From Gammaproteobacteria bacterium (GTDB lineage: Bacteria; Pseudomonadota; Gammaproteobacteria; GCA-001735895): a stretch of 64,000 nt of DNA. The translations under genes were made by a program, and so were the position numbers. Where the stretch lies: contig JBNKUM010000008.1 of NCBI GenBank assembly GCA_050298595.1, forward strand, positions 139,017 through 203,016. Direction: 5' to 3'. Of this stretch, positions 7,266 through 17,382 are shown piece after piece. The notes under the pieces were generated by a model. The model did not search any database, was not told where the DNA came from, and saw only the letters and a list, made by a program, of their open reading frames with translations. The stretch's first letter is position 1. Every line of letters begins with the position of its first letter.

Positions 7266-10200
7266 TCAGGAATGCAAACCTTGCAAACTGTACACTTCTT
7301 TAACCTTGCGATGATCCATCGCCATACAGGTGGCTAAGCCACCCGCCAATGTGGTGGTATAGGTCACACCCTGCATCAGGGCTTCACGCCGGATGGCGTA
7401 GGAATCTGCGATAGCTGCACGACCTTCAGTGGTATTCACAATCATATCAATTTCAAAATTCTTAATCATATCAACAATATGTGGACGACCTTCTTTCACC
7501 TTATTGACCTGCTGACAGGGGATTCCAGCCTGCTGAATCGTTCTTGCAGTGCCACCGGTTGCAACCAGCTCAAACCCTTTGCTGACAAGATCCGCCGCCA
7601 GCTTATGTACGGCCGGTTTATCATGATCGCGCACACTGAGAAAAACTTTCCCTCTTTCAGGCAACATAGTTCCTGCTGCCAGCAGGCCTTTGGCAAAGGC
7701 TTCGGCAAACGTCTTACCTATACCCATAACCTCGCCAGTAGACTTCATTTCAGGCCCCAGAATCGGATCAACACCCTGAAATTTTGCAAATGGGAAAACG
7801 GATTCTTTTACTGCAACAAAATTCGGTATTACCTGTTTAGAGTAGCCCTGTGACTTCAACGTTTGCCCTGCCATGCAACGGGCAGCTACCTTGGCAAGAG
7901 GCACTCCGGTTGCTTTCGAAACAAAGGGCACAGTACGCGAAGCGCGAGGATTGACTTCCAGAATATAAATATCGCTGCCCTTGATAGCAAACTGGGTATT
8001 CATAAGACCAACAACATTCAACGCCTTCGCCATCGCCTCGACCTGAACACAAAGTTCCTGCTGAATCTCAGCGGATAAGGTATAGGGTGGCAATGAACAC
8101 GCTGAGTCGCCTGAATGCACACCAGCCTGCTCGATATGTTCCATCAAACCACCGATAAACACATCCTGTCCATCGCATACGGCATCTACATCAACCTCTA
8201 CCGCATCATCCAGAAATCGATCCAGTAACACCGGTGAGTCCTTGGTGACCTTAACGGCTTCGGTCATATAGCGAGCCAGATCTTCCTGATCGTATACGAT
8301 TTCCATTGCGCGACCACCCAGTACATAGGAAGGACGCACTACCAGTGGGAAACCCACCTCTTCTGCCAATGCTGCTGAAGATGCGACATCAAAAGCGATG
8401 CGATTGGGTGGCTGACGTAATTTCAAACCGTGAATCATCTGCTGGAACCTTTCACGATCCTCTGCCAGATCAATAGAGTCTGGAGTGGTACCTATAATCG
8501 GCACACCTGCAGCTTCCAATGAGCGCGCCAGATTCAGCGGGGTTTGTCCTCCAAACTGTACAATCACGCCTTTAGGCTGTTCCAGATGGATGATTTCCAT
8601 AACATCTTCAAGCGTCAACGGTTCAAAATAGAGCCGATCGGAAGTGTCATAATCGGTAGATACGGTTTCTGGATTACAGTTGACCATGATGGTTTCATAG
8701 CCATCTTCACGCATTGCCATGGCCGCATGCACACAACAATAATCAAATTCTATGCCCTGGCCAATACGGTTTGGCCCACCACCCAGAACCACAATTTTAT
8801 CGCGACTTGTAGCTTCGGCTTCGCATTCCATTTCATAGCTTGAGTATAAATAAGCGGTAGAGGATGCAAACTCAGCGGCACAGGTATCTACGCGCTTATA
8901 CACCGGGCGAATATTTAAATCGCGACGAGCTGTTGAAACGGCCAGCTCATCGGCATTCAGCAACTCGGCCAGTCTTCTGTCAGCAAACCCTTTACGCTTA
9001 AGCTGGAAGAATTCATCCGCAGTAATGGATTCGAGAGCACGGCCTTTCAGGGATTGCTCGATACTGACCAGTTGTTCTATTTGTACCAGAAACCAGGGAT
9101 CGATTGCAGACATATCAAAAATCTGCTGGACGCTATAACCCGATCTAAATGCATCTGCTACATACCAGATGCGATTTGCGCCTGGTAACCTGAGCTCAGT
9201 GCGATATAACTCTTCTTGCTGCTCGGCGGACAATTCGTCCTGCTTGACGATTTCTTCCAGGCCGAAAATGCCAATCTCCAGACCGCGTAGTGCCTTCTGG
9301 AAAGACTCCTGAAAACTGCGCCCAATTGCCATCACTTCGCCCACCGATTTCATCTGGGTACCCAGACGATCATCCGCCTGCGAGAATTTCTCGAAGGTAA
9401 AACGAGGGATTTTGGTTACGACATAATCGATAGAGGGTTCAAAAGATGCAGGAGTGGCACCACCGGTAATATCATTCTGAAGCTCATCCAGTGTATAACC
9501 TGCAGCCAGCTTGGCGGCCACTTTAGCGATTGGGAAACCCGTCGCTTTGGAAGCCAGCGCTGATGAGCGTGACACCCGTGGATTCATTTCAATGATGATC
9601 ATTTCACCATTTTCCGGATTGATCGCAAACTGCACGTTTGAACCACCGGTTTCCACACCAATCTTACGCAGCACCGCCAGCGAGGCATCACGCATGATTT
9701 GATATTCTTTATCGGTCAGGGTTTGAGCAGGCGCAACGGTTATCGAATCGCCGGTATGTACTCCCATCGGGTCTAGATTTTCTATCGAACAGATAATGAT
9801 GCAATTATCATTTTTATCACGCACCACTTCCATTTCGTATTCTTTCCAGCCAAGTACCGATTTTTCTATCAGAACCTCGCTGGTAGGGGAAAGATCCAGA
9901 CCGCGCTTGATAATATCTTCAAACTCATCACGATTATAGGCAATTCCGCCACCACTGCCGCCCATAGTAAAAGAGGGACGAATAATGACGGGGAAACCAA
10001 TCTGGGGGTGACCCTGCCAGGCTTCTTCCAGACTATGCGCAATAAATGATTTTGGTGTATTAAGCCCAATTTCAGCCATCGCCTTTCTAAACTGGTCACG
10101 ATCTTCTGCCATATCAATGGCTTCCCGGCTGGCGCCAATCATTTCTACGCCATGCTTTTCCAGAACGCCTTCGCGCACCAGATCCAGTGCGCAGTTGAGT

Positions 10201-10484
10201 GCTGTCTGTCCACCCATCGTTGGCAGCAGAGCATCAGGCTTTTCTTTTTCGATGATCTTTTCCACTGCCGTCCAGTGAATCGGTTCGATATAAACCGCAT
10301 CCGCTGTATCCGGATCGGTCATGATGGTGGCGGGGTTGGAATTGATCAGAATAACTCTAAAGCCTTCTTCCTTTAAAGCCTTACAGGCCTGAGCACCAGA
10401 ATAATCAAATTCGCAGGCCTGCCCGATAACAATAGGACCTGCCCCTATGATCAGAATGCTTTGAATATCTTGTCTACGTGGCAT
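7266..10484 (-). CDS. carB: carbamoyl-phosphate synthase large subunit
   Basis: 1072-aa ORF with duplicated ATP-grasp halves and an MGS-like C-terminal domain. Begins [30 protein letters not shown]. Confidence 0.95.
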
Positions 10485-11626
10485 CAGGCTTGCCCTCCCT
10501 GTGCTTTAAGCTCTATTAGCTCAAAGAAATGATCGAATAAGGGAGACACATCATGCGGGCCAGGACTGGCTTCAGGATGCCCCTGAAAACTAAAAGCTGG
10601 CTTATCGGTGCGATGGACAGCCTGTAGTGAGCCATCGAATAAGGAGCGATGGGTTGCTTTTAAATTTGCAGGTAAGCTTTCTTCATCTACAGCAAACCCA
10701 TGGTTCTGACTGGTAATCATCACCACGCCAGACGCCAGATCCTGCACAGGATGGTTAGCACCATGATGACCGAACTTCATTTTCACCGTTTTGGCTCCAC
10801 TGGCTAATGACAATAATTGATGCCCCAGACAGATACCGAAAATAGGTATTTCTGTCTGTAAAAACTGCTGGATAGCTTCTATCGCATAATCGCAGGGCTC
10901 TGGATCACCTGGGCCATTGGATAGAAAAATGCCATCTGGCTGCATTGCCAGAACATCTGTTGCTGGGGTTTGTGCGGGTACCACGGTGACACGAGCACCA
11001 CGTTCGCAGAGCATGCGTAAGATATTCTTCTTTACACCATAATCGTAAGCGACCACATGATAAGGGGTAGATTCAGCCTGCTGATGTCCCTCAGTCAAAG
11101 ACCAGACAGTTTCTGTCCATGGATATTGTTGCTGGGTTGTGACTTCTTTTGCCAGATCCATTCCCGCCAGACCTGGAAAATCTTGTGCTGCTGCAATAGC
11201 CTGAGCTTCATCTATATCTTCGCCCGCCATAATGGCACCATTTTGCGCACCCTTTTCTCTTAACAGTCGGGTTAACTGTCTGGTATCGATATCTGCAATG
11301 GCTACAACATTGTTTTGTTTGAGATAATCTCCCAAAGACATTTCGCTGCGCCAGTTACTCGCCAAAAGCGGTAAATCTCGAATCACCAGGCCACTGGCGT
11401 GGATTTGATCGGCCTCTTCATCTTCACGAGTTACCCCGGTATTACCGATATGTGGATAGGTTAAAGTAATTATCTGGCGAGCATAGGATGGATCGGTCAA
11501 AATTTCCTGATATCCAGTCATCGAGGTATTGAAAACCACCTCCCCCTGGGTCAGACCATTTGATCCAATCGCTATACCCTTAAAGATGGTTCCATCTTGC
11601 AGGGCGAGTATGGCAGGTACCGTCAC
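10484..11626 (-). CDS. carA: carbamoyl-phosphate synthase small subunit (glutaminase); GTG start preceded by a GGAG Shine-Dalgarno
   Basis: 380-aa ORF with the class I glutamine amidotransferase triad context GICLGHQLL. Its stop overlaps the carB start by 1 nt. Confidence 0.9.
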
Positions 11627-11828
11627 AATTTCTCCGCTGTTAAATTAATGACCCAGACTGAAATGGGCGCGCACAAAAATGGGATGAGCCACTGGTTCAC
11701 CCCACTTACTGAAAAATTTTATTGAGATAATACTGAGGAAACAGCATTTTCCTGAGTGCGTATTCTAGGGTATAACCCCCAGGAGTGTCTATGAATGAAT
11801 GGATTTTATGCAAATCTTGTCACTCTTA

Positions 11829-12069
11829 AACCTAGAATCCGCAGTTGGACGATCGGAAGTGTGCGTTTGCGGTGGTGTAGATCAAGGCGTGACGACGCGG
11901 AATAGCGGGCTATTCCAGGGAGTTACAACGCAGAGATACACCGCCGCAAACGTGCAATTCAGCTCGTAGCGGGATTCGCCTGTTGGGTGAAACAGATAAA
12001 TCGAGTTTAATGGTTTACGAAACAGAGGGTTACACTTTAATGCGAGCGGTTAACTGCGGAATCTAGGTT
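11829..12069. repeat. nested inverted-repeat structured element of about 240 bp (candidate structured RNA or MITE-like repeat)
   Basis: Outer arms AACCTAGAATCCGCAGTT (11829-11846) and AACTGCGGAATCTAGGTT (12052-12069) match 17 of 18 as reverse complements. Inner arms are 11861-11879 and 11937-11956. A central hairpin GGAATAGC-GGG-CTATTCC sits at 11899-11916. Confidence 0.5.
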
Positions 12070-12108
12070 AAAAGTAACTCCCCTGAATAGTAAGCGAAAA
12101 AATTAGAG

Positions 12109-13659
12109 CTATCCGGCTTTTTTAGTCAAAGCCTTTTTGCATCTTCTGACTGCCTGCAACATCTGGTTTGCATCGGCATAGCGTTGATAAGGCTTTTTGG
12201 ATAATGCTTTTTGCAGTATTTGCTTGATGGAATCAGGCACGGTAAGAATACTGAGATCTACCTTCTGGGTGAGTACATTTTTTTTCATCTCAGACAACTT
12301 TTCACCATAAAAGGGTTGATTGCCGGTTAATAGGTGATAAATAGTTACCGCCAGCGAAAAAAGATCTGACCGACCATCAATTCTTAATCCATTCAACTGC
12401 TCGGGGGACATATAGGCGGGGGTTCCTATGATCTTTCTCTCTTCATCTTTATGTCGAAAATCGCTATAAGCAGCACCAAAATCAGTAAGTATGTAATGTT
12501 TGAGTTTATTGTCATACATGATATTGGCTGGTTTTATATCACCATGCACAATGTTTTTTTCATGCGCTGCAGTGAGCGCATCGAGCACTGATTCCATTAT
12601 GCGCAAACTCTCCCCCGAGGTAATAAATTTTTTACGCCGCAACCTTTCCGACATGGGATAACCTTCGACATAGTCCATTGCAATAAAAGCTCGGTCATCG
12701 ATGATATCGGCATCGTGAATCTTGACTATATTCGGATGATCAAGTTGAGACGCAGTCAGCGCCTCATGCAAAAAAGTCATCACATCACGCGCACCAGTAT
12801 CATCATTTAACTTATCGTTAAGAATTTTGAGTGCTATTCGTTTATGGGTATGTAAATCGTGAGCGTCATACACAGTTGCGGTCGCTCCTCGAGCCTTTTT
12901 ACCCAGTAATTGATACTGGCCGAACTGTTTCGTTTTGGTTGTATCGGAGCTGTCAGTCTGGCTTACACTTTTCTCCTGTTCCATTGAATCAATTCTTTCT
13001 ACAAAGTCCTGCATCCCCGGATCAAACTTGACCAGCCAGGCATAGAGACTGCGCGCTGTCACCCAGTCCTGCTGCTCCTCTAGCTGCATACCCAGATCGT
13101 AAGCCAGCTCGAACATTTCATCTGAAAACGGGCAGTTTTTTAAGATTAACAACGCCGTCTTGAAATCCTTTTGCTGTATATACTGATTAATCACTTTCAC
13201 CTGACATACCTGTTCGGGTAATACGAAATTTTTAATCTGTGGAAAACGAACCCACACAAAAAGCACCACCACGGTCAAGCTGAACATGATTACCGACCAA
13301 ACCATAGGCAACCAGATCTGCTGTAACACCGCCAGCAATACTTCGAGCATCAACATAGCAGAAATGATCGGAATTACAAAGATCAGGGTCAGATGTTTAC
13401 AACTGCGCAGCAACAAGCACAGGAATACTGCGCCGAACATGAGGCATATCACTAGCCGCTGTAAAAACCAGGGATACCCCTGCTCAGTGACTGACACTTC
13501 CAGATTGAACCTGGGTGTTAAATCTATTAACTGTTGATAAAAAGCGCTTTCCAGACCGATAATAGCAGCATGAAAACTCAGTAAAATACTGAGTAACAAC
13601 ATACATCCTGTATAAATGAGCATCCATTTGCGTGTTTGAACATCAATCCACATGCCCAT
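12109..13659 (-). CDS. membrane-anchored Hanks-type Ser/Thr protein kinase: N-terminal TM region of about 4-5 helices, a helical linker and a C-terminal kinase domain
   Basis: Gly-rich loop LGKKARGATATVY, beta3 lysine in IALKIL, catalytic loop HGDIKPAN (non-RD), DFG in TDFGAA and SPEQ for APE. The first 150 aa or so are strongly hydrophobic. Confidence 0.75.
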   Translation of the reverse strand: MGMWIDVQTRKWMLIYTGCMLLLSILLSFHAAIIGLESAFYQQLIDLTPRFNLEVSVTEQGYPWFLQRLVICLMFGAVFLCLLLRSCKHLTLIFVIPIISAMLMLEVLLAVLQQIWLPMVWSVIMFSLTVVVLFVWVRFPQIKNFVLPEQVCQVKVINQYIQQKDFKTALLILKNCPFSDEMFELAYDLGMQLEEQQDWVTARSLYAWLVKFDPGMQDFVERIDSMEQEKSVSQTDSSDTTKTKQFGQYQLLGKKARGATATVYDAHDLHTHKRIALKILNDKLNDDTGARDVMTFLHEALTASQLDHPNIVKIHDADIIDDRAFIAMDYVEGYPMSERLRRKKFITSGESLRIMESVLDALTAAHEKNIVHGDIKPANIMYDNKLKHYILTDFGAAYSDFRHKDEERKIIGTPAYMSPEQLNGLRIDGRSDLFSLAVTIYHLLTGNQPFYGEKLSEMKKNVLTQKVDLSILTVPDSIKQILQKALSKKPYQRYADANQMLQAVRRCKKALTKKAG

Positions 13660-13686: not shown

Positions 13687-16600
13687 CTAAGCATCATAGT
13701 TAAGAACTGGCGCTAACCAACGCTCCGTGACTGACTGCCCCATACCTTTACGCTCGGCATAATCCAGTAACTGATCTTTTTCGATTTTACCCACAGCAAA
13801 GTAATTTGCCTGCGGGTGAGCAAAGTAAAACCCTGATACCGATGCCATCGGCAGCATGGCATAAGACTCGGTGATGGTGATACCAATATTTTGATCTGGC
13901 TGAATTAACTCCCATAGCAAGGCCTTCTCAGTGTGATCTGGACAGGCTGGATAACCCGGTGCTGGACGTATGCCCTGATACGATTCCCTGATCAGCTCAC
14001 TGTTTTGCAGATTTTCATCGTTGGCATAACCCCAGGCCTGCTTGCGTATCTTTTCATGCAGCCATTCGGCAGCCGCTTCGGCAAGACGATCAGCCAGCGC
14101 TTTTGCCATGATAGCATTGTAATCATCGTGCTGAGCTTCAAATTGCTCTACGATTTTTTCCAGACCGATGCCTGCAGTAACTGCAAAAGCCCCCAGGTAA
14201 TCCGGTAATCCAGTAGACTCGGGGGCAATAAAATCTGACAAACACTGGTTTGCTTTACCAGGAGGCTTCTGGTTTTGCTGACGCAGATGATGCAGCACCA
14301 TTAACTCTTCACTACGCTGCTCGGACTGATAAAGCACAATATCATCATCTCTGCTATTCGCAGGGAAAAATCCATACACAGCTTTGGCGCCCAGCTGTCC
14401 CTGATCGACAATACTCGATAATTGAACCTGCGCATCTTCAAATAATTGCTGAGCTTCTTTGCCAACAATCTCATCCTGCAAAATTTTCGGATAGCTACCC
14501 GCCAGCTCCCAGGCATGGAAAAAAGGCGTCCAGTCAATATACTCAACCAGTTCATGCAGATCTATTTCATCAATCACTGACACCCCTGTTGAAGCAGGCT
14601 TTGGTGGCTGGTAACCACTCCAGTCTATAGGCGTACGATTTTCACGTGCCTGTGCCAGGGTGAGGAATTTCTTATTAGATTGCCTGCCGGCATGCAGTTC
14701 GCGCACCTGTACATATTCATCACGAATACCTTTTCTAAAATCATCACCCTGATTATCACTCAGCAGCGCTGATGCCACACCGACCGCACGCGATGCATCT
14801 TTTACATACACCACGCTATCGGCATCATAATGCGGTTCAATCTTCACCGCCGTATGAACTCGGGAGGTAGTCGCCCCCCCTATCATCAGAGGAATACTAA
14901 AACCTTGACGTTTCATCTCTTTAGCAACATGCACCATCTCATCCAGCGACGGAGTGATCAGGCCTGAAAGCCCTATGATATCGACGTTTTGTTCGCGCGC
15001 AGTTTTTAAGATGGTTTCTGCAGGCACCATGACACCAAGATCGATAATTTCATAATTGTTACACTGCAGTACAACGCCGACGATATTCTTACCGATATCG
15101 TGCACATCGCCTTTAACCGTCGCCATCAGTATCTTGCCATTGGTAGACAGATCATCACTGCTTTTCTCAGCTTCCAGATAAGGCATCAAATACGCCACTG
15201 CCTGCTTCATGACACGCGCAGATTTAACCACCTGAGGCAGGAACATCTTACCATCGCCAAATAGATCACCCACTACATTCATACCATCCATCAAAGGACC
15301 TTCAATCACATTCAATGAAGCAGGATAATGCTGACGTGCCTCTTCCGTATCAACCTCGATAAATTCGGTTATACCCTTAACCAGTGCATGCTCCAGACGT
15401 TTGTTGATATCCAGACTACGCCACGCCTGATCTTCCTTGTTTTCCAGCGCCTTGCCATCACCCCGGTATTTTTCGGCAATATCCAGCAATGCCTCAGTCG
15501 CTTCGGGATTGCGGTTAAGCACGACATCCTCTACCCGTTGCTTTAATTCTTCGGGTATATCGGAATAGATGGCCAGCTGACCGGCATTGACTATACCCAT
15601 ATCCATACCCTGCTGAATCGCATGATATAAAAACACCGCATGGATCGCTTCGCGAACCGGGTTATTGCCTCTGAAGGAGAATGAGACATTTGATAACCCC
15701 CCACTGACCAGGGCATGGGGCAGGTTCTGCTTAATGAATTTTGTGGCCTCAAAAAAATCGACGGCGTAGTTATTGTGCTCATCTATGCCCGTTGCAATCG
15801 CAAAGATATTGGGGTCGAAAATAATATCTTCAGGAGGAAAACCTAACTGTTCGGTTAATATCTGATAGGCGCGTTGGCAGATTTCAATCTTACGTGCCGC
15901 CGTATCAGCCTGCCCATGTTCGTCGAAAGCCATAACGATAGCCGCTGCACCATAACGTCGAACCAGACGCGCCTGCTGGATAAACTTCTCTTCACCCTCC
16001 TTAAGACTGATCGAATTCACTACACCCTTGCCCTGGATGCATTGCAACCCGGCTTCGATGATGTCCCATTTGGATGAATCCAGCATGATCGGAACACGAG
16101 AAATATCAGGTTCACTGGCGATCAGATTCAGAAAGCGCACCATCGCCTCTTTCGACTCCAGCAGACCTTCATCCATATTGATATCGATAATCTGCGCGCC
16201 GTTTTCTACCTGTTGCCTGGCTACATCCAGTGCAGTTTCGTAATCGCCTTCCATGATCAGGCGTTTAAACATGGCAGAGCCAGTAACGTTAGTTCGTTCG
16301 CCAACATTCACAAACAGACTGTCGGCGGAAATGGTACAGGGCTCTAATCCAGCCAACTGACAACTGACAGGTAACTCAGGAATTTTACGTGGCGCGAGGC
16401 CTGAGACCTTTTGCACTATAGCCCTGATATGATCGGGGCTGGTACCACAGCATCCACCCACAATATTCAGAAATCCATTCTCCGCCCATTCGACGATTTC
16501 ACCCGCAACATCTTCAGGAGTTTCATCGTATTCACCGAATTCATTGGGCAACCCGGCATTGGGGTGAGCTGACACATGCGTATCCGCAATATTCGACAAG

Positions 16601-17382
16601 GTTTCTACATATTGGCGTAATTCCTTCGGCCCTAGCGCGCAGTTAAGCCCGATAGATACAGGCTCTGCATGGCGCAGGCTATTGTAAAAGGCTTCGGTGG
16701 TTTGCCCGGACAGGGTGCGACCGGATGCATCAGTAATCGTGCCCGAGATCATGATAGGCAGTTCTTTCTCGCGCTGATCAAATACCTGTTTAACAGCAAA
16801 AATTGCGGCCTTGGCATTCAAGGTGTCGAAGATGGTTTCGATCAGGATGATATCGGACCCACCATCGATCAAACCTTCAGTTGCTTCGCTGTATATCTCT
16901 ACCAACTCATTAAAGCTGGTATTGCGATAACCGGGATCATTCACATCAGGTGATAAAGAAGCTGTACGACTGGTTGGCCCCAGTACACCGGCTACAAAAC
17001 GGGGCTTAGCTGGGTTCTGCCGGGTAAAGTCATCGCAGATTGCTCGCGCAATCTCACTGGATGTTTTATTGATTTCGTATGCCAGATCCTGCATCGAATA
17101 ATCCGACATGGAAATTCGGTTGGCATTGAAGGTATTGGTTTCGATGATATCCGCACCAGCTTGCAGATAGGCTTTATGGATATCACTGATAATCTGTGGC
17201 TGAGTCAACGACAAAAGGTCATTATTGCCCTTGAGCGGGCTTTCCCAGTCAGCAAAACGTTGTCCTCGATAATCTGACTCTTCCAGCTCATAAGATTGAA
17301 TCATGGTGCCCATAGCACCATCGAGAAATAAGATTCGCTGCTTCAGGGCATCTAGAAAAACTTGCGGGTCAGAGGAACTCAC
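13687..17382 (-). CDS. metH: cobalamin-dependent methionine synthase
   Basis: 1231-aa ORF with Hcy-binding, pterin-binding, B12-binding ([11 protein letters not shown]) and AdoMet reactivation domains in canonical order. Confidence 0.95.

Follow-up and report, generated by a model that had tools for sequence, protein, structure and literature searches.

Inverted repeats upstream of carA as a probable copy of a MITE family with ISEcp1-like ends and an interior arm folded on one strand

The nested inverted repeats between a Ser/Thr kinase gene and carA in the window (i.e., the whole 64-kb stretch of DNA that was analysed) are, taken as a whole, best explained as a copy of a MITE with ISEcp1-like ends and an interior arm folded on one strand, a reading to which we assign a probability of roughly 0.8. 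The element covers 237 nt (11831-12067), with a direct copy of TTAAA on each side. As in other MITEs, we found terminal inverted repeats, a fixed 5-bp duplication with an empty site, many dispersed copies, and no transposase gene. As in structured non-coding RNAs, we found a secondary structure supported by covariation, with G-U tolerated and A-C avoided on one strand. The family is widespread and was found neither in the searched literature, where no description of its end sequences turned up, nor in Rfam.

A preliminary description of this DNA had reported nested inverted repeats between carA and the kinase gene, and these are present in the sequence. The outer 18-bp pair is complementary at 17 of 18 positions (11829-11846 with 12052-12069) and extends to 30 nt at 80%, and the inner pair (11849-11879 with 11937-11967) spans 31 nt at 81%, including a 16-nt core at 94%. 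The perfect apical hairpin is there too, with 8 pairs (11899-11906 with 11909-11916) rather than the 7 originally given. The extra sequence on one side amounts to about 85-95 nt and lies on the 3' side (11968-12049), and the distances to the neighboring genes were given correctly (carA start at 11626, kinase stop at 12109). Both ends carry 16-18-bp terminal inverted repeats, CCTAGA(A/T)TCCGCAGTT. The features of the element are collected in Table 1.

The predicted fold of the + strand of the element has an energy of -109.1 kcal/mol (z = -6.9), equalled by none of 200 shuffles, and that of the - strand -91.4 kcal/mol (z = -5.6); judged by folding against shuffles, so stable a structure is far from what chance would give. 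Of the ORFs of at least 50 aa, just one overlaps the element; it encodes 56 aa (11799-11969), starts outside the element, and has no Pfam match. A blastn comparison of the element with plasmid and phage collections gave no match.

Table 1 Features of the element at the locus (positions in the window).
Feature	Position	Strand	Remark
Left target-site duplication, TTAAA, 5 bp	11826..11830	.	Identical 5-mer beyond the opposite end
Terminal inverted repeat, "A-type" end, CCTAGAATCCGCAGTTGG	11831..11848	+	5' strand of closing helix P1
P2 5' strand, ACGATCGGAA	11849..11858	+	Partner is 11958-11967
Long arm	11860..11956	+	Helix P3, two internal loops, 5-bp helix, apical hairpin
Tandem U.G/G.U wobble in P3 of the arm	11862-11863 with 11953-11954	+	Conserved
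Lower internal loop of the arm	AAGGC 11884-11888 / AACGCA 11927-11932	+	
5-bp helix of the arm	GTGAC 11889-11893 / GTTAC 11922-11926	+	
Upper internal loop of the arm	GACGCG 11894-11899 / CAGGGA 11916-11921	+	
Apical hairpin of the arm	11900-11915	+	
P2 3' strand, TTCAGCTCGT	11958..11967	+	Family alignment and covariation
Conserved unpaired motif GTAGCG	11966..11971	+	Nearly invariant in the family alignment
Subterminal palindrome TTCGCC-TGTTG-GGTGAA	11975..11991	.	~77-93 nt from the right tip in the window copy
AT-rich region, sequence differs among subfamilies	11992..12045	.	Kept in short deletion variants
Terminal inverted repeat, "T-type" end, reverse complement CCTAGATTCCGCAGTTAA	12050..12067	-	3' strand of P1; IRL-like end
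Right target-site duplication, TTAAA, 5 bp	12068..12072	.	Matches the left 5-mer

Comparison with related genomes showed the element to be an insertion specific to one lineage, 237 + 5 nt long, which separates the kinase stop codon from the carA promoter. The metH-kinase-carAB gene order is shared by four relatives, and none of these has the element. The kinase-carA spacer is 482 nt in the window vs 222-230 nt in three of these relatives, and the alignment contains a single ~240-nt block found in the window alone. L009, the fourth of them and the nearest (its kinase is 89% identical), has an empty site with one GTTAAAT, and excising 11831-12072 (the element and one TTAAA) restores colinearity with it. 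The predicted carA -35 box is at 11791, with the element 40 nt upstream of it, and the carA leader is nearly unchanged in the four relatives without the element. The insertion was probably neutral at this locus; the true carA control region, i.e., the conserved promoter and an attenuator-like leader with a terminator-like hairpin, adjoins the element and is intact. An apparent third copy of the end sequence (11757-11771) is not counted with the element; it is the predicted carA -10 box region and is kept in the element-less relatives, so we read the resemblance as chance.

The preliminary description had offered three options, of which the small mobile repeat is borne out by the terminal inverted repeats, the 5-bp target duplication, the empty site in relatives, and the copies in many genomes, while a carA leader and a structure in the kinase 3' UTR are not. 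Under either of the latter, the element would be a cis-regulatory RNA for its neighbors, as a leader or riboswitch of carA or as a stabiliser or terminator in the kinase 3' UTR, in line with its position between both genes and the very stable fold on either strand; given read-through from the kinase gene, the - strand would be transcribed with it. This is very improbable and is already contradicted by the evidence at the locus: the element is missing from four relatives whose carA leader persists, it lies upstream of the predicted carA promoter and thus outside the predicted carA transcript, and the selected, better-folding strand is opposite to both carA and the kinase gene. Moreover, members of the family adjoin unrelated genes in either orientation, and no T-run follows the hairpin on the - strand. 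The structure at this locus is therefore not a pyrimidine or arginine regulatory RNA, which removes a false lead, and the strand-specific covariation of its interior is a property of the mobile element, not of carA or the kinase gene.

To profile the family, the contigs of one genome per species were scanned with a 21-nt end pattern, CCTAGAWTCCGCAGTTRRMCG, which matched at least 119 genome stretches vs ~4 expected by chance on our own estimate. The end sequence of the family is CCTAGAWTCCGCAGTT. Among the matches listed, both ends could be paired in 94 elements, for which the modal length is 235-237 nt; the hosts were Gamma- and Betaproteobacteria, plus single matches in one alphaproteobacterial MAG and one Verrucomicrobiales MAG, and one MAG gave 22 loci. 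At least six copies are carried by a 1.43-Mb long-read contig and two by a cultured host, Rhodoferax sp. OV413, at about 146188-146422 of NZ_FNJA01000007.1 and about 527017-527251 of NZ_FNJA01000003.1. The search for further copies proposed in the preliminary description thus had a split outcome, i.e., abundant copies in other genomes and none elsewhere in the 64-kb window (blastn-short and covariance model). In the window's own species, three assemblies break at or inside the element; the multi-copy state is indicated there indirectly, by these contig breaks, and the window has a single copy. Such elements break short-read assemblies and can pass for riboswitches or small RNAs in genome scans.

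Identical 5-bp flanks were found in 52 of 93 copies, with one mismatch in 17 more, as compared with 1 of 93 when the adjoining outer 5 nt are taken, and the consensus of the target duplication is W-T-N-A-W. All copies of the family are intergenic, the ORFs beside them are unrelated housekeeping genes, and there is no orientation bias relative to the flanking genes (21 co-directional vs 21 opposite). Deletion variants and truncated remnants are present among the copies. The shorter variants (104-156 nt) occur in several copies, keep the AT-rich region, and are missing the arm; the ~110-nt arm is therefore not needed for a minimal element.

The arm was studied in an alignment of 60 copies from 19 subfamilies. 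RNAalifold predicted 51 pairs, of which 32 had compensatory changes; double changes were counted in 32-38 pairs, and 93% of the cells were paired vs 76% in shuffles. The covariation score was 0.44-0.48, against 0.18 in shuffles and at most 0.12 with slid partners, and in the comparison with 500 shuffles it was 0.483 vs 0.183 (0 of 500 as high); related copies in the alignment make the shuffle control overstate the significance, which is mitigated by the slid-partner control and the 19 subfamilies. Double changes were found in 0 of 16 pairs of helix 1 (the terminal repeats) and in 29 of 31 pairs of helices 2-4. The terminal repeats are nearly invariant in sequence across the 60 copies and have no compensatory double changes, which indicates a constraint on sequence and not only on pairing. 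Both sides changed across the family in 9 of 10 pairs of P2, and there were double changes in 27 of 30 pairs of the P2-P3 helix and in all six of the 5-bp helix. The first wobble column is UG in 36 and GU in 9 of the 60 copies, and the second is GU in 43 of 60. The two internal loops (AAGG/ACGC) are one motif in opposite, mirror-image orientation, conserved in the family alignment. The G-C/C-G pairs of the GTAGCG motif with 12046-12047 are present in 60 of 60 copies, and the subterminal palindrome (family consensus TTCACC-N4-5-GGTGA) is conserved mainly in sequence.

Several measures point to one strand. In total there are 216 G-U pairs to 34 A-C pairs, with the excess invariably on one and the same strand, and G-U is the commoner of the two in 59 of 60 copies and 19 of 19 subfamilies. 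The sense strand folds better by 18.8 kcal/mol on average (true of 59 of 61 copies), and the covariance model scored ~150-240 bits on the sense strand vs 27-56 on the antisense strand. Most subfamilies have thus retained the arm, folded on one strand, the + strand in the window. Homologous arms also occur without the terminal repeats of the family; the same arm lies behind at least two kinds of terminal repeat, and also alone. With interior covariation this strong and strand-specific, the earlier comment linking a closing helix that surrounds internal helices to structured RNAs was apt. The suggested scan with Rfam covariance models gave no match in the whole window at gathering thresholds, and at E values up to 10 the window copy and two diverse copies had only weak, unrelated, and inconsistent matches.

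Template switching that "corrects" long quasi-palindromes is an established mutational mechanism, and the covariation could in principle be its by-product, with the arm as junk filler. This would agree with the dispensability of the arm in the short variants and with the largely palindromic nature of many MITEs (PMC3184786). We nevertheless regard it as improbable, as such correction would erase internal loops and wobbles, and the two asymmetric conserved loops and the tandem U.G/G.U persist across 19 subfamilies, as well as in arms that follow another type of terminal repeat. Nor would a strand-symmetric process, with elements inserted in both orientations, be expected to yield 216 G-U pairs to 34 A-C pairs on one strand. 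Selection might instead act on the host, if a beneficial small RNA gene had come to lie by chance between transposon ends; the covariation, conserved wobbles, and conserved loops are as in functional small RNAs, and every copy is intergenic. The dozens of copies per genome, the deletion variants and truncated remnants, the patchy distribution across genomes, and the empty orthologous site in close relatives make this improbable, and a conserved promoter or terminator was not found.

The ends connect the family to ISEcp1, an insertion sequence that is clinically important because it mobilises beta-lactamase genes. The IRL of ISEcp1 is CCTAGATTCTACGT, and its insertion generates 5-bp AT-rich repeats, e.g., TAATA, TAAGA, and ACTCA (PMC6061673); in pC15-1a the duplication is TCATA. 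A 5-bp AT-rich target duplication is thus made by both, and the terminal CCTAGATTC is common to ISEcp1 and the ends of the element. The T-type end agrees with the ISEcp1 IRL in all of its first 9 nt and the A-type end in its first 6 nt, and the terminal repeats part company after position 9 (CCGCAGTT vs TACGTCAG). Like the element, ISEcp1 and its environmental relatives have a palindrome, TTCACCC-N-GGGTGAA, ~70-75 nt from the IRL-type end. In pC15-1a this palindrome, TTCACCCATTGGGTGAA, lies 75-92 nt from the IRL tip; as TTCACCC(A/T)(A/T)TGGGTGAA, ~74 nt inside the IRL, it is carried by ISEcp1 itself and, of 80 metagenomic ISEcp1-clade loci, by 69, and the distance from the MITE palindrome to the T-type end is ~68-85 nt in typical copies. 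That ISEcp1, its environmental relatives, and the MITEs have this palindrome in common suggests a functional site at the left end. ISEcp1 differs from the element in its length (1.66 kb vs 237 nt), the element is without a transposase gene, and the structured arm is absent from the ISEcp1-clade ends examined, right ends included.

We infer that a DDE transposase of the ISEcp1 clade (IS1380 family) moves the element in trans. It would recognise the invariant ends and probably also the subterminal TTCACC-N-GGTGAA palindrome; the end at 12067 would then correspond to an ISEcp1-type IRL with ~100 nt of left-end sequence, and the end at 11831 to the bare IRR of an ISEcp1-like insertion sequence. 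Within the limited sampling of loci, we found no autonomous element with the same terminal repeats and no full-length partner whose matching ends enclose a DDE_Tnp_1_4 transposase gene. A tblastn search with the ISEcp1 transposase detected no IS1380-type transposase in the window or in the 119 loci, and clustering and Pfam scanning of the ORFs near all terminal repeats returned housekeeping functions only and no partner transposase. One exception among these ORFs was an IS3-type integrase ~1.2 kb from an unpaired repeat. A scan with the ISEcp1-clade alignment found CCGCAG-type ends in 0 of 80 metagenomic ISEcp1-like loci. The relatives that a protein search found with the ISEcp1 transposase were all at least 83% identical to it; their ends have the palindrome and have neither the CCGCAG repeat nor the arm.

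How the sense strand might be produced was considered at the window copy. The promoter scan predicted no sigma-70-like promoter on the + strand, leaving the sense strand there without a predicted source of transcription, and neither a conserved promoter nor a terminator was found for it in this copy. By our own reading, TAGAAT in the A-type repeat is -10-like and has no -35 in the window copy. SD-like or CsrA-type GGA motifs in the loops were dismissed, as they are not conserved across subfamilies on reading of the alignment.

The strand asymmetry fits single-stranded DNA as well as RNA. The folded strand could act as single-stranded DNA during transposition or replication, drawing the two ends together or providing a priming or recognition structure, as in attC, IS200/IS605 ends, and single-strand initiation signals. 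Strand-specific pairing with G-T tolerated suits this equally, the lack of a detected sense-strand promoter at the window copy agrees with it, and, since a 237-bp duplex is stiff, a P1 fold that juxtaposes the terminal repeats could, as we see it, help synapsis. The GTAGCG beside the hairpin is also reminiscent of REP and ssoA-type signals. An orientation bias is usual among elements that exploit the lagging-strand template, as established for IS200/IS605, and here there is none relative to the neighboring genes (21 vs 21). In addition, the terminal repeats, fixed 5-bp duplication, and ISEcp1-like ends indicate a DDE transposase acting on duplex DNA, and arm-less variants are also present in several copies. 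We therefore consider a single-stranded DNA role unlikely.

With somewhat less than even odds, we favor a role of the arm as RNA made by read-through transcription, where it may serve as a binding platform for a dimeric protein. Candidates for this protein are the cognate transposase, a host RNA-binding protein, and a ribonuclease, and selection on the element rather than on carA would retain the arm. More tentatively, and on balance doubtful, the arm may represent an undescribed class of transposon-borne structured RNA, i.e., a ~110-nt hairpin with the two mirror-image loops and the tandem wobble, bound by a dimeric protein (candidates being an IS1380-type transposase or a host factor) that influences the spread or persistence of the element. 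If so, the arm would be a portable RNA module common to MITE families of Gamma- and Betaproteobacteria. In any case, this covarying, strand-specific arm offers a concrete candidate for a structured RNA carried by a transposon.

Among known repeats and RNAs, the RAYT-associated REP/BIME sequences (a 20-40-nt palindrome with 5' GTAG and no duplication) were rejected, as the element has 237 nt, terminal repeats, and a 5-bp duplication. GTAGCG is present next to a hairpin in the element, in an architecture that differs from REP/BIME. A retron non-coding RNA was likewise rejected, as no reverse transcriptase gene is adjacent, the neighbors being the kinase gene and carA, and other family members lie beside housekeeping genes. 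The attC and riboswitch readings were rejected on context and target duplication. Closer in kind are Correia/NEMIS of Neisseria and ERIC of Enterobacteria, which, like the element, are short, highly palindromic, and intergenic; they form long hairpins when transcribed and can affect neighboring genes. Correia elements differ in their 26-bp terminal repeats, TA duplication, and IHF site, ERIC is without a clear duplication, and both lack ISEcp1-like ends and the loop motifs of the element.

Terminal repeats of the Tn3 type are 38 bp long and start with GGGG. The ends of the element start with CCTAG and match ISEcp1, not the Tn3 type, which sets it apart from the Tn3-derived TIMEs. The miniature size and 5-bp duplication are shared with TIMEs, which are non-autonomous elements of ~250 bp with a 5-bp target duplication (PMC4133298). 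A parallel in structure is bcr1 of the Bacillus cereus group (~155 bp, non-autonomous, transcribed), which is also a small intergenic mobile repeat with 5-bp direct repeats at its flanks and compensatory changes by which a multi-stem fold is preserved (PMC3184786). In sequence, terminal repeats, and host phylum, bcr1 is unrelated to the element. Unlike bcr1, the family described here is distributed over several classes of Proteobacteria, and it has twofold loops and a tandem wobble that are conserved.

Alignment of the spacer between the Ser/Thr kinase gene and carA with the same region of four relatives revealed a single block of ~240 nt unique to the window. This element, a MITE with ISEcp1-like ends and TTAAA on both flanks, is an insertion. 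The spacer is 482 nt long in the window versus 222–230 nt in three relatives with the same metH-kinase-carAB order (kinase orthologues 82%, 71% and 71% identical), and the closest relative, L009 (a short contig, kinase 89% identical), also lacks the element. Once the element and one TTAAA are excised, the window aligns colinearly with L009, whose sequence there contains one GTTAAAT, and the extra length relative to L009 is 242 nt, i.e., 237 + 5. The spacer is 100% identical in five same-species MAG assemblies that span it entirely, and three same-species contigs (L004, L007 and L008) end at window position 11832 or 11996, at the edge or in the interior of the element. Assembly breaks of this sort are typical of repeated DNA, and those in these independent assemblies illustrate how a repeat fragments short-read MAGs. 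Solely from the breaks and from related MAGs, we infer multiple copies in the window's own species.

Positions of the element, its parts, neighboring features and related arms (window coordinates unless a retrieved comparison stretch, L-number, is named)
Feature	Position	Strand	Remark
Element	11831-12067		237 nt
Helix P1	11831-11848 / 12050-12067		A-type / T-type end, the two terminal repeats (RNAalifold)
Helix P2	11849-11858 / 11958-11967		RNAalifold
Long arm	11860-11956		RNAalifold
Two-pair helix			adjoins GTAGCG motif (RNAalifold)
Outer inverted pair	11829-11846 / 12052-12069		80% at 30 nt
Inner inverted pair	11849-11879 / 11937-11967		31 nt, 81%
Apical hairpin	11899-11906 / 11909-11916
Tandem wobble	11862-11863 / 11953-11954
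Element palindrome	11975-11991
17-nt stretch / arm 3' side	12074-12090 / 11910-11926		CTATTCCAGGGAGTTAC / GTAACTCCCCTGAATAG
metH	13687-17382	-
Ser/Thr kinase gene	12109-13659	-
carA	10484-11626	-
carB	7266-10484	-	greA, ftsJ, ftsH and folP beyond
carA promoter (predicted sigma-70)	11791-11762	-	TAGACA-18-TAGAAT
carA leader hairpin	~11708-11676	-	GUGGGGUGAACCAGUGGCUCAUCCCAU, then UUUUUG
carA control region (predicted)	11627-11791	-
tRNA gene	3-85	-
Three small genes	~18.1-19.5 kb		108, 134 and 145 aa
ISEcp1 palindrome (pC15-1a)	L135:871-888
Arms in CTTAGG-type elements	L061:2443-2560; L061:6695-6811; L133:1686-1801
Extents of these elements	L061:2421-2583; L061:6673-6835; L133:~1660-1825	second and third -
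Plain hairpin arms	L079:147-253; L123:4376-4468

The order along the - strand is metH, kinase, element, carA and carB, a gammaproteobacterial arrangement in which all flanking genes share that strand. A preliminary description had considered a carA leader or a 3'-UTR structure of the kinase gene; neither holds, as the predicted carA promoter lies downstream of the element, which is absent in relatives with a conserved carA leader. Across five aligned sequences (the window and four relatives), the 170 nt preceding carA hardly vary, and the actual control region of carA is predicted to lie there. It includes an intrinsic-terminator-like leader hairpin that could be a pyrimidine-sensitive attenuator. 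Since this hairpin and the predicted promoter are both downstream of the element and kept in relatives, the insertion is probably neutral for carA. The kinase gene itself lies between metH and carA in 4/4 relatives examined; its Pfam kinase domain covers residues 257–502 only, and the N-terminal ~250 residues are without a Pfam match. Elsewhere in the window, three small genes adjoin a cobalamin adenosyltransferase gene (L001 gene table); one has a weak Xre_MbcA_ParS_C antitoxin-domain match, and they may include a toxin-antitoxin pair.

No second copy was found inside the 64-kb window, but at least 119 stretches of a one-genome-per-species collection contain matches to a 21-nt pattern that fits either end (CCTAGAWTCCGCAGTTRRMCG), against an estimated ~4 by chance. 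This recurrence, the 5-bp duplications and the empty site in L009 bear out the earlier suggestion of a small mobile repeat, and the element has every generic hallmark of a MITE. Among the matches listed, 94 elements had both ends paired, their lengths peaking sharply at 235–237 nt; the 5-nt flanks were identical in 52/93 copies and differed by one mismatch in 17 more, and the adjoining outward 5 nt, as a control, were identical in 1/93. The duplicated target has the consensus W-T-N-A-W (e.g., TTTAA, TTAAA, ATAAT, TTCAA and ATCAT). Short variants (104–156 nt) retain just the two ends and the ~100 nt on the T-type side, and have no arm, the long hairpin inside the element. The hosts among the matches listed are mainly Gammaproteobacteria MAGs (Thiodiazotropha, Sedimenticola, Ectothiorhodospiraceae, Chromatiales, Thiohalomonadales, Pseudomonadales and Cellvibrionales), with Burkholderiales and other Betaproteobacteria, including the cultured Rhodoferax sp. 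OV413, and single matches in one Parasphingorhabdus and one Verrucomicrobiales MAG. One MAG accounts for 22 of these listed loci, and a 1.43-Mb long-read contig has at least six copies. All listed copies with ORFs called on both sides are intergenic; 21 are co-directional with and 21 opposite to neighboring genes, 14 lie between convergent and 10 between divergent genes, and there is no orientation bias.

The ends point to the ISEcp1 clade of the IS1380 family. The first 9 nt of the T-type end are identical to the ISEcp1 IRL, CCTAGATTCTACGT (PMC6061673), which was also read directly in the pC15-1a sequence, and ISEcp1 likewise makes 5-bp, AT-rich target duplications (PMC6061673). A palindrome, TTTCACCCATTGGGTGAAAG, lies 75–92 nt inside the IRL of ISEcp1 in pC15-1a and is present in two further ISEcp1-like elements with diverged ends and in 69/80 metagenomic clade loci (L143–L222). 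In the form TTCACCC(A/T)(A/T)TGGGTGAA, ~74 nt inside the IRL, it is kept in ISEcp1 and its environmental relatives despite changed repeats (CCTAGATTC, CTGAGATTC and CTCGCATTC), and is likely a functional site of ISEcp1, a clinically important insertion sequence. Typical MITE copies have the palindrome TTCACC-N4-5-GGTGA ~68–85 nt from the T-type end. Given the IRL match, duplications and palindrome, the end at 12067 appears to be IRL-like, accompanied by ~100 nt from the left end, and the one at 11831 to be a bare IRR, an assignment drawn from the position of a palindrome that has no polarity. Neither CCGCAG-type ends nor the arm occurred in the ISEcp1-like elements sampled, and these included no full-length partner element with the same ends, the feature looked for as a mark of IS1380 membership. 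Among the matches listed, no transposase adjoins any copy, the ORFs by paired or unpaired ends being housekeeping genes, and tblastn with the ISEcp1 transposase had no match in the window or the family loci.

The nested inverted repeats first noticed in this spacer are present and far beyond chance: the outer pair is 17/18 complementary as described, and the apical hairpin, given as 7 bp, has 8 perfect pairs. On the 3' side there are an additional ~85–95 nt. Folding energies as RNA are -109.1 kcal/mol (z = -6.9) for the + strand and -91.4 kcal/mol (z = -5.6) for the - strand, and no shuffle was equally good for either. Just beyond the right target duplication, a 17-nt stretch is complementary at 15/17 positions to the arm's 3' side (estimated chance expectation ~0.01 in 600 nt); it could be the remnant of an earlier copy or serve for alternative pairing. 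An Rfam scan returned no family for the element, the tRNA gene being the sole match in the window at the gathering threshold.

Distinct ~235-nt copies, oriented by their asymmetric ends before alignment, share a single architecture with very different helix sequences. Compensatory double changes, proposed earlier as a check, occur in 32/51 pairs predicted by RNAalifold. The named structure had 93% paired cells versus 76% in shuffles and a covariation score of 0.483 versus 0.183 (0/500 shuffles reach 0.483), statistics that overstate significance because the copies are interrelated; stronger evidence comes from the occurrence in multiple subfamilies and from the control with partners slid by 1–3 columns (score ≤0.12). 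Double changes affect 29/31 pairs of helices 2–4 and none of the terminal-repeat helix, which indicates that the sequence of the latter is itself constrained, as expected of a protein-binding site. That the pattern is a mutational by-product of palindrome correction seems improbable.

The internal helices contain 216 G-U versus 34 A-C combinations, with G-U in excess in 59/60 copies and 19/19 subfamilies (defined at 75% identity). The sense strand (window + strand) folds better in 59/61 copies, by 18.8 kcal/mol on average, and a covariance model scores it at ~150–240 bits versus 27–56 on the opposite strand. With such asymmetry between the strands, a constraint on a symmetric duplex or cruciform is excluded, which leaves RNA or one DNA strand. 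We tentatively favor the arm acting as RNA (probability about 0.4–0.5), because RNA recognition typically involves conserved wobbles and internal loops of specific sequence. Of 60 copies, 36 have U.G and 9 have G.U at the first position of the conserved tandem wobble, and 43 have G.U at the next. The lower loop (5' AAGGC / 3' AACGCA) and the upper loop (5' GACGCG / 3' CAAGGA; CAGGGA in the window copy) are one motif in opposite orientation, flanking a covarying 5-bp helix, and this twofold arrangement suggests that the partner of such an RNA would be a dimeric protein. A single-stranded DNA role in transposition, the other strand-specific reading, is unlikely, as the absent orientation bias argues against a lagging-strand mechanism. 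The same lack of bias argues against regulation of host genes, as does the strand under selection, which runs opposite to both neighbors in the window. A promoter scan found no sense-strand promoter at the window copy. A host small RNA is improbable.

The covariance model also found arms without CCTAG ends. Some lie in elements with another terminal repeat (CTTAGG...CGTAAAA...), which form a separate MITE-like hairpin family with a homologous arm, and others are plain hairpins. They have the loop motifs of the family arm, and the L133 arm has the apical GAATAG-N4-CTATTC hairpin also found in the window family. Their outer stems show compensatory differences, even between CTTAGG-type copies in one genome. 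The arm thus appears to be a portable unit, and it may, though this is doubtful, represent a new structured RNA module carried by transposons.

The element is a MITE with a conserved fold. Its end sequences had no match in the literature searched, and titles and abstracts of papers mentioning IS1380 and MITEs described no comparable IS1380-derived MITE. Functionally, the element has its closest precedent in bcr1, a transcribed Bacillus cereus group repeat of ~155 bp with 5-bp direct repeats, in which compensatory changes keep a multi-stem fold (PMC3184786). Correia, ERIC and the Tn3-derived TIMEs are looser analogues.
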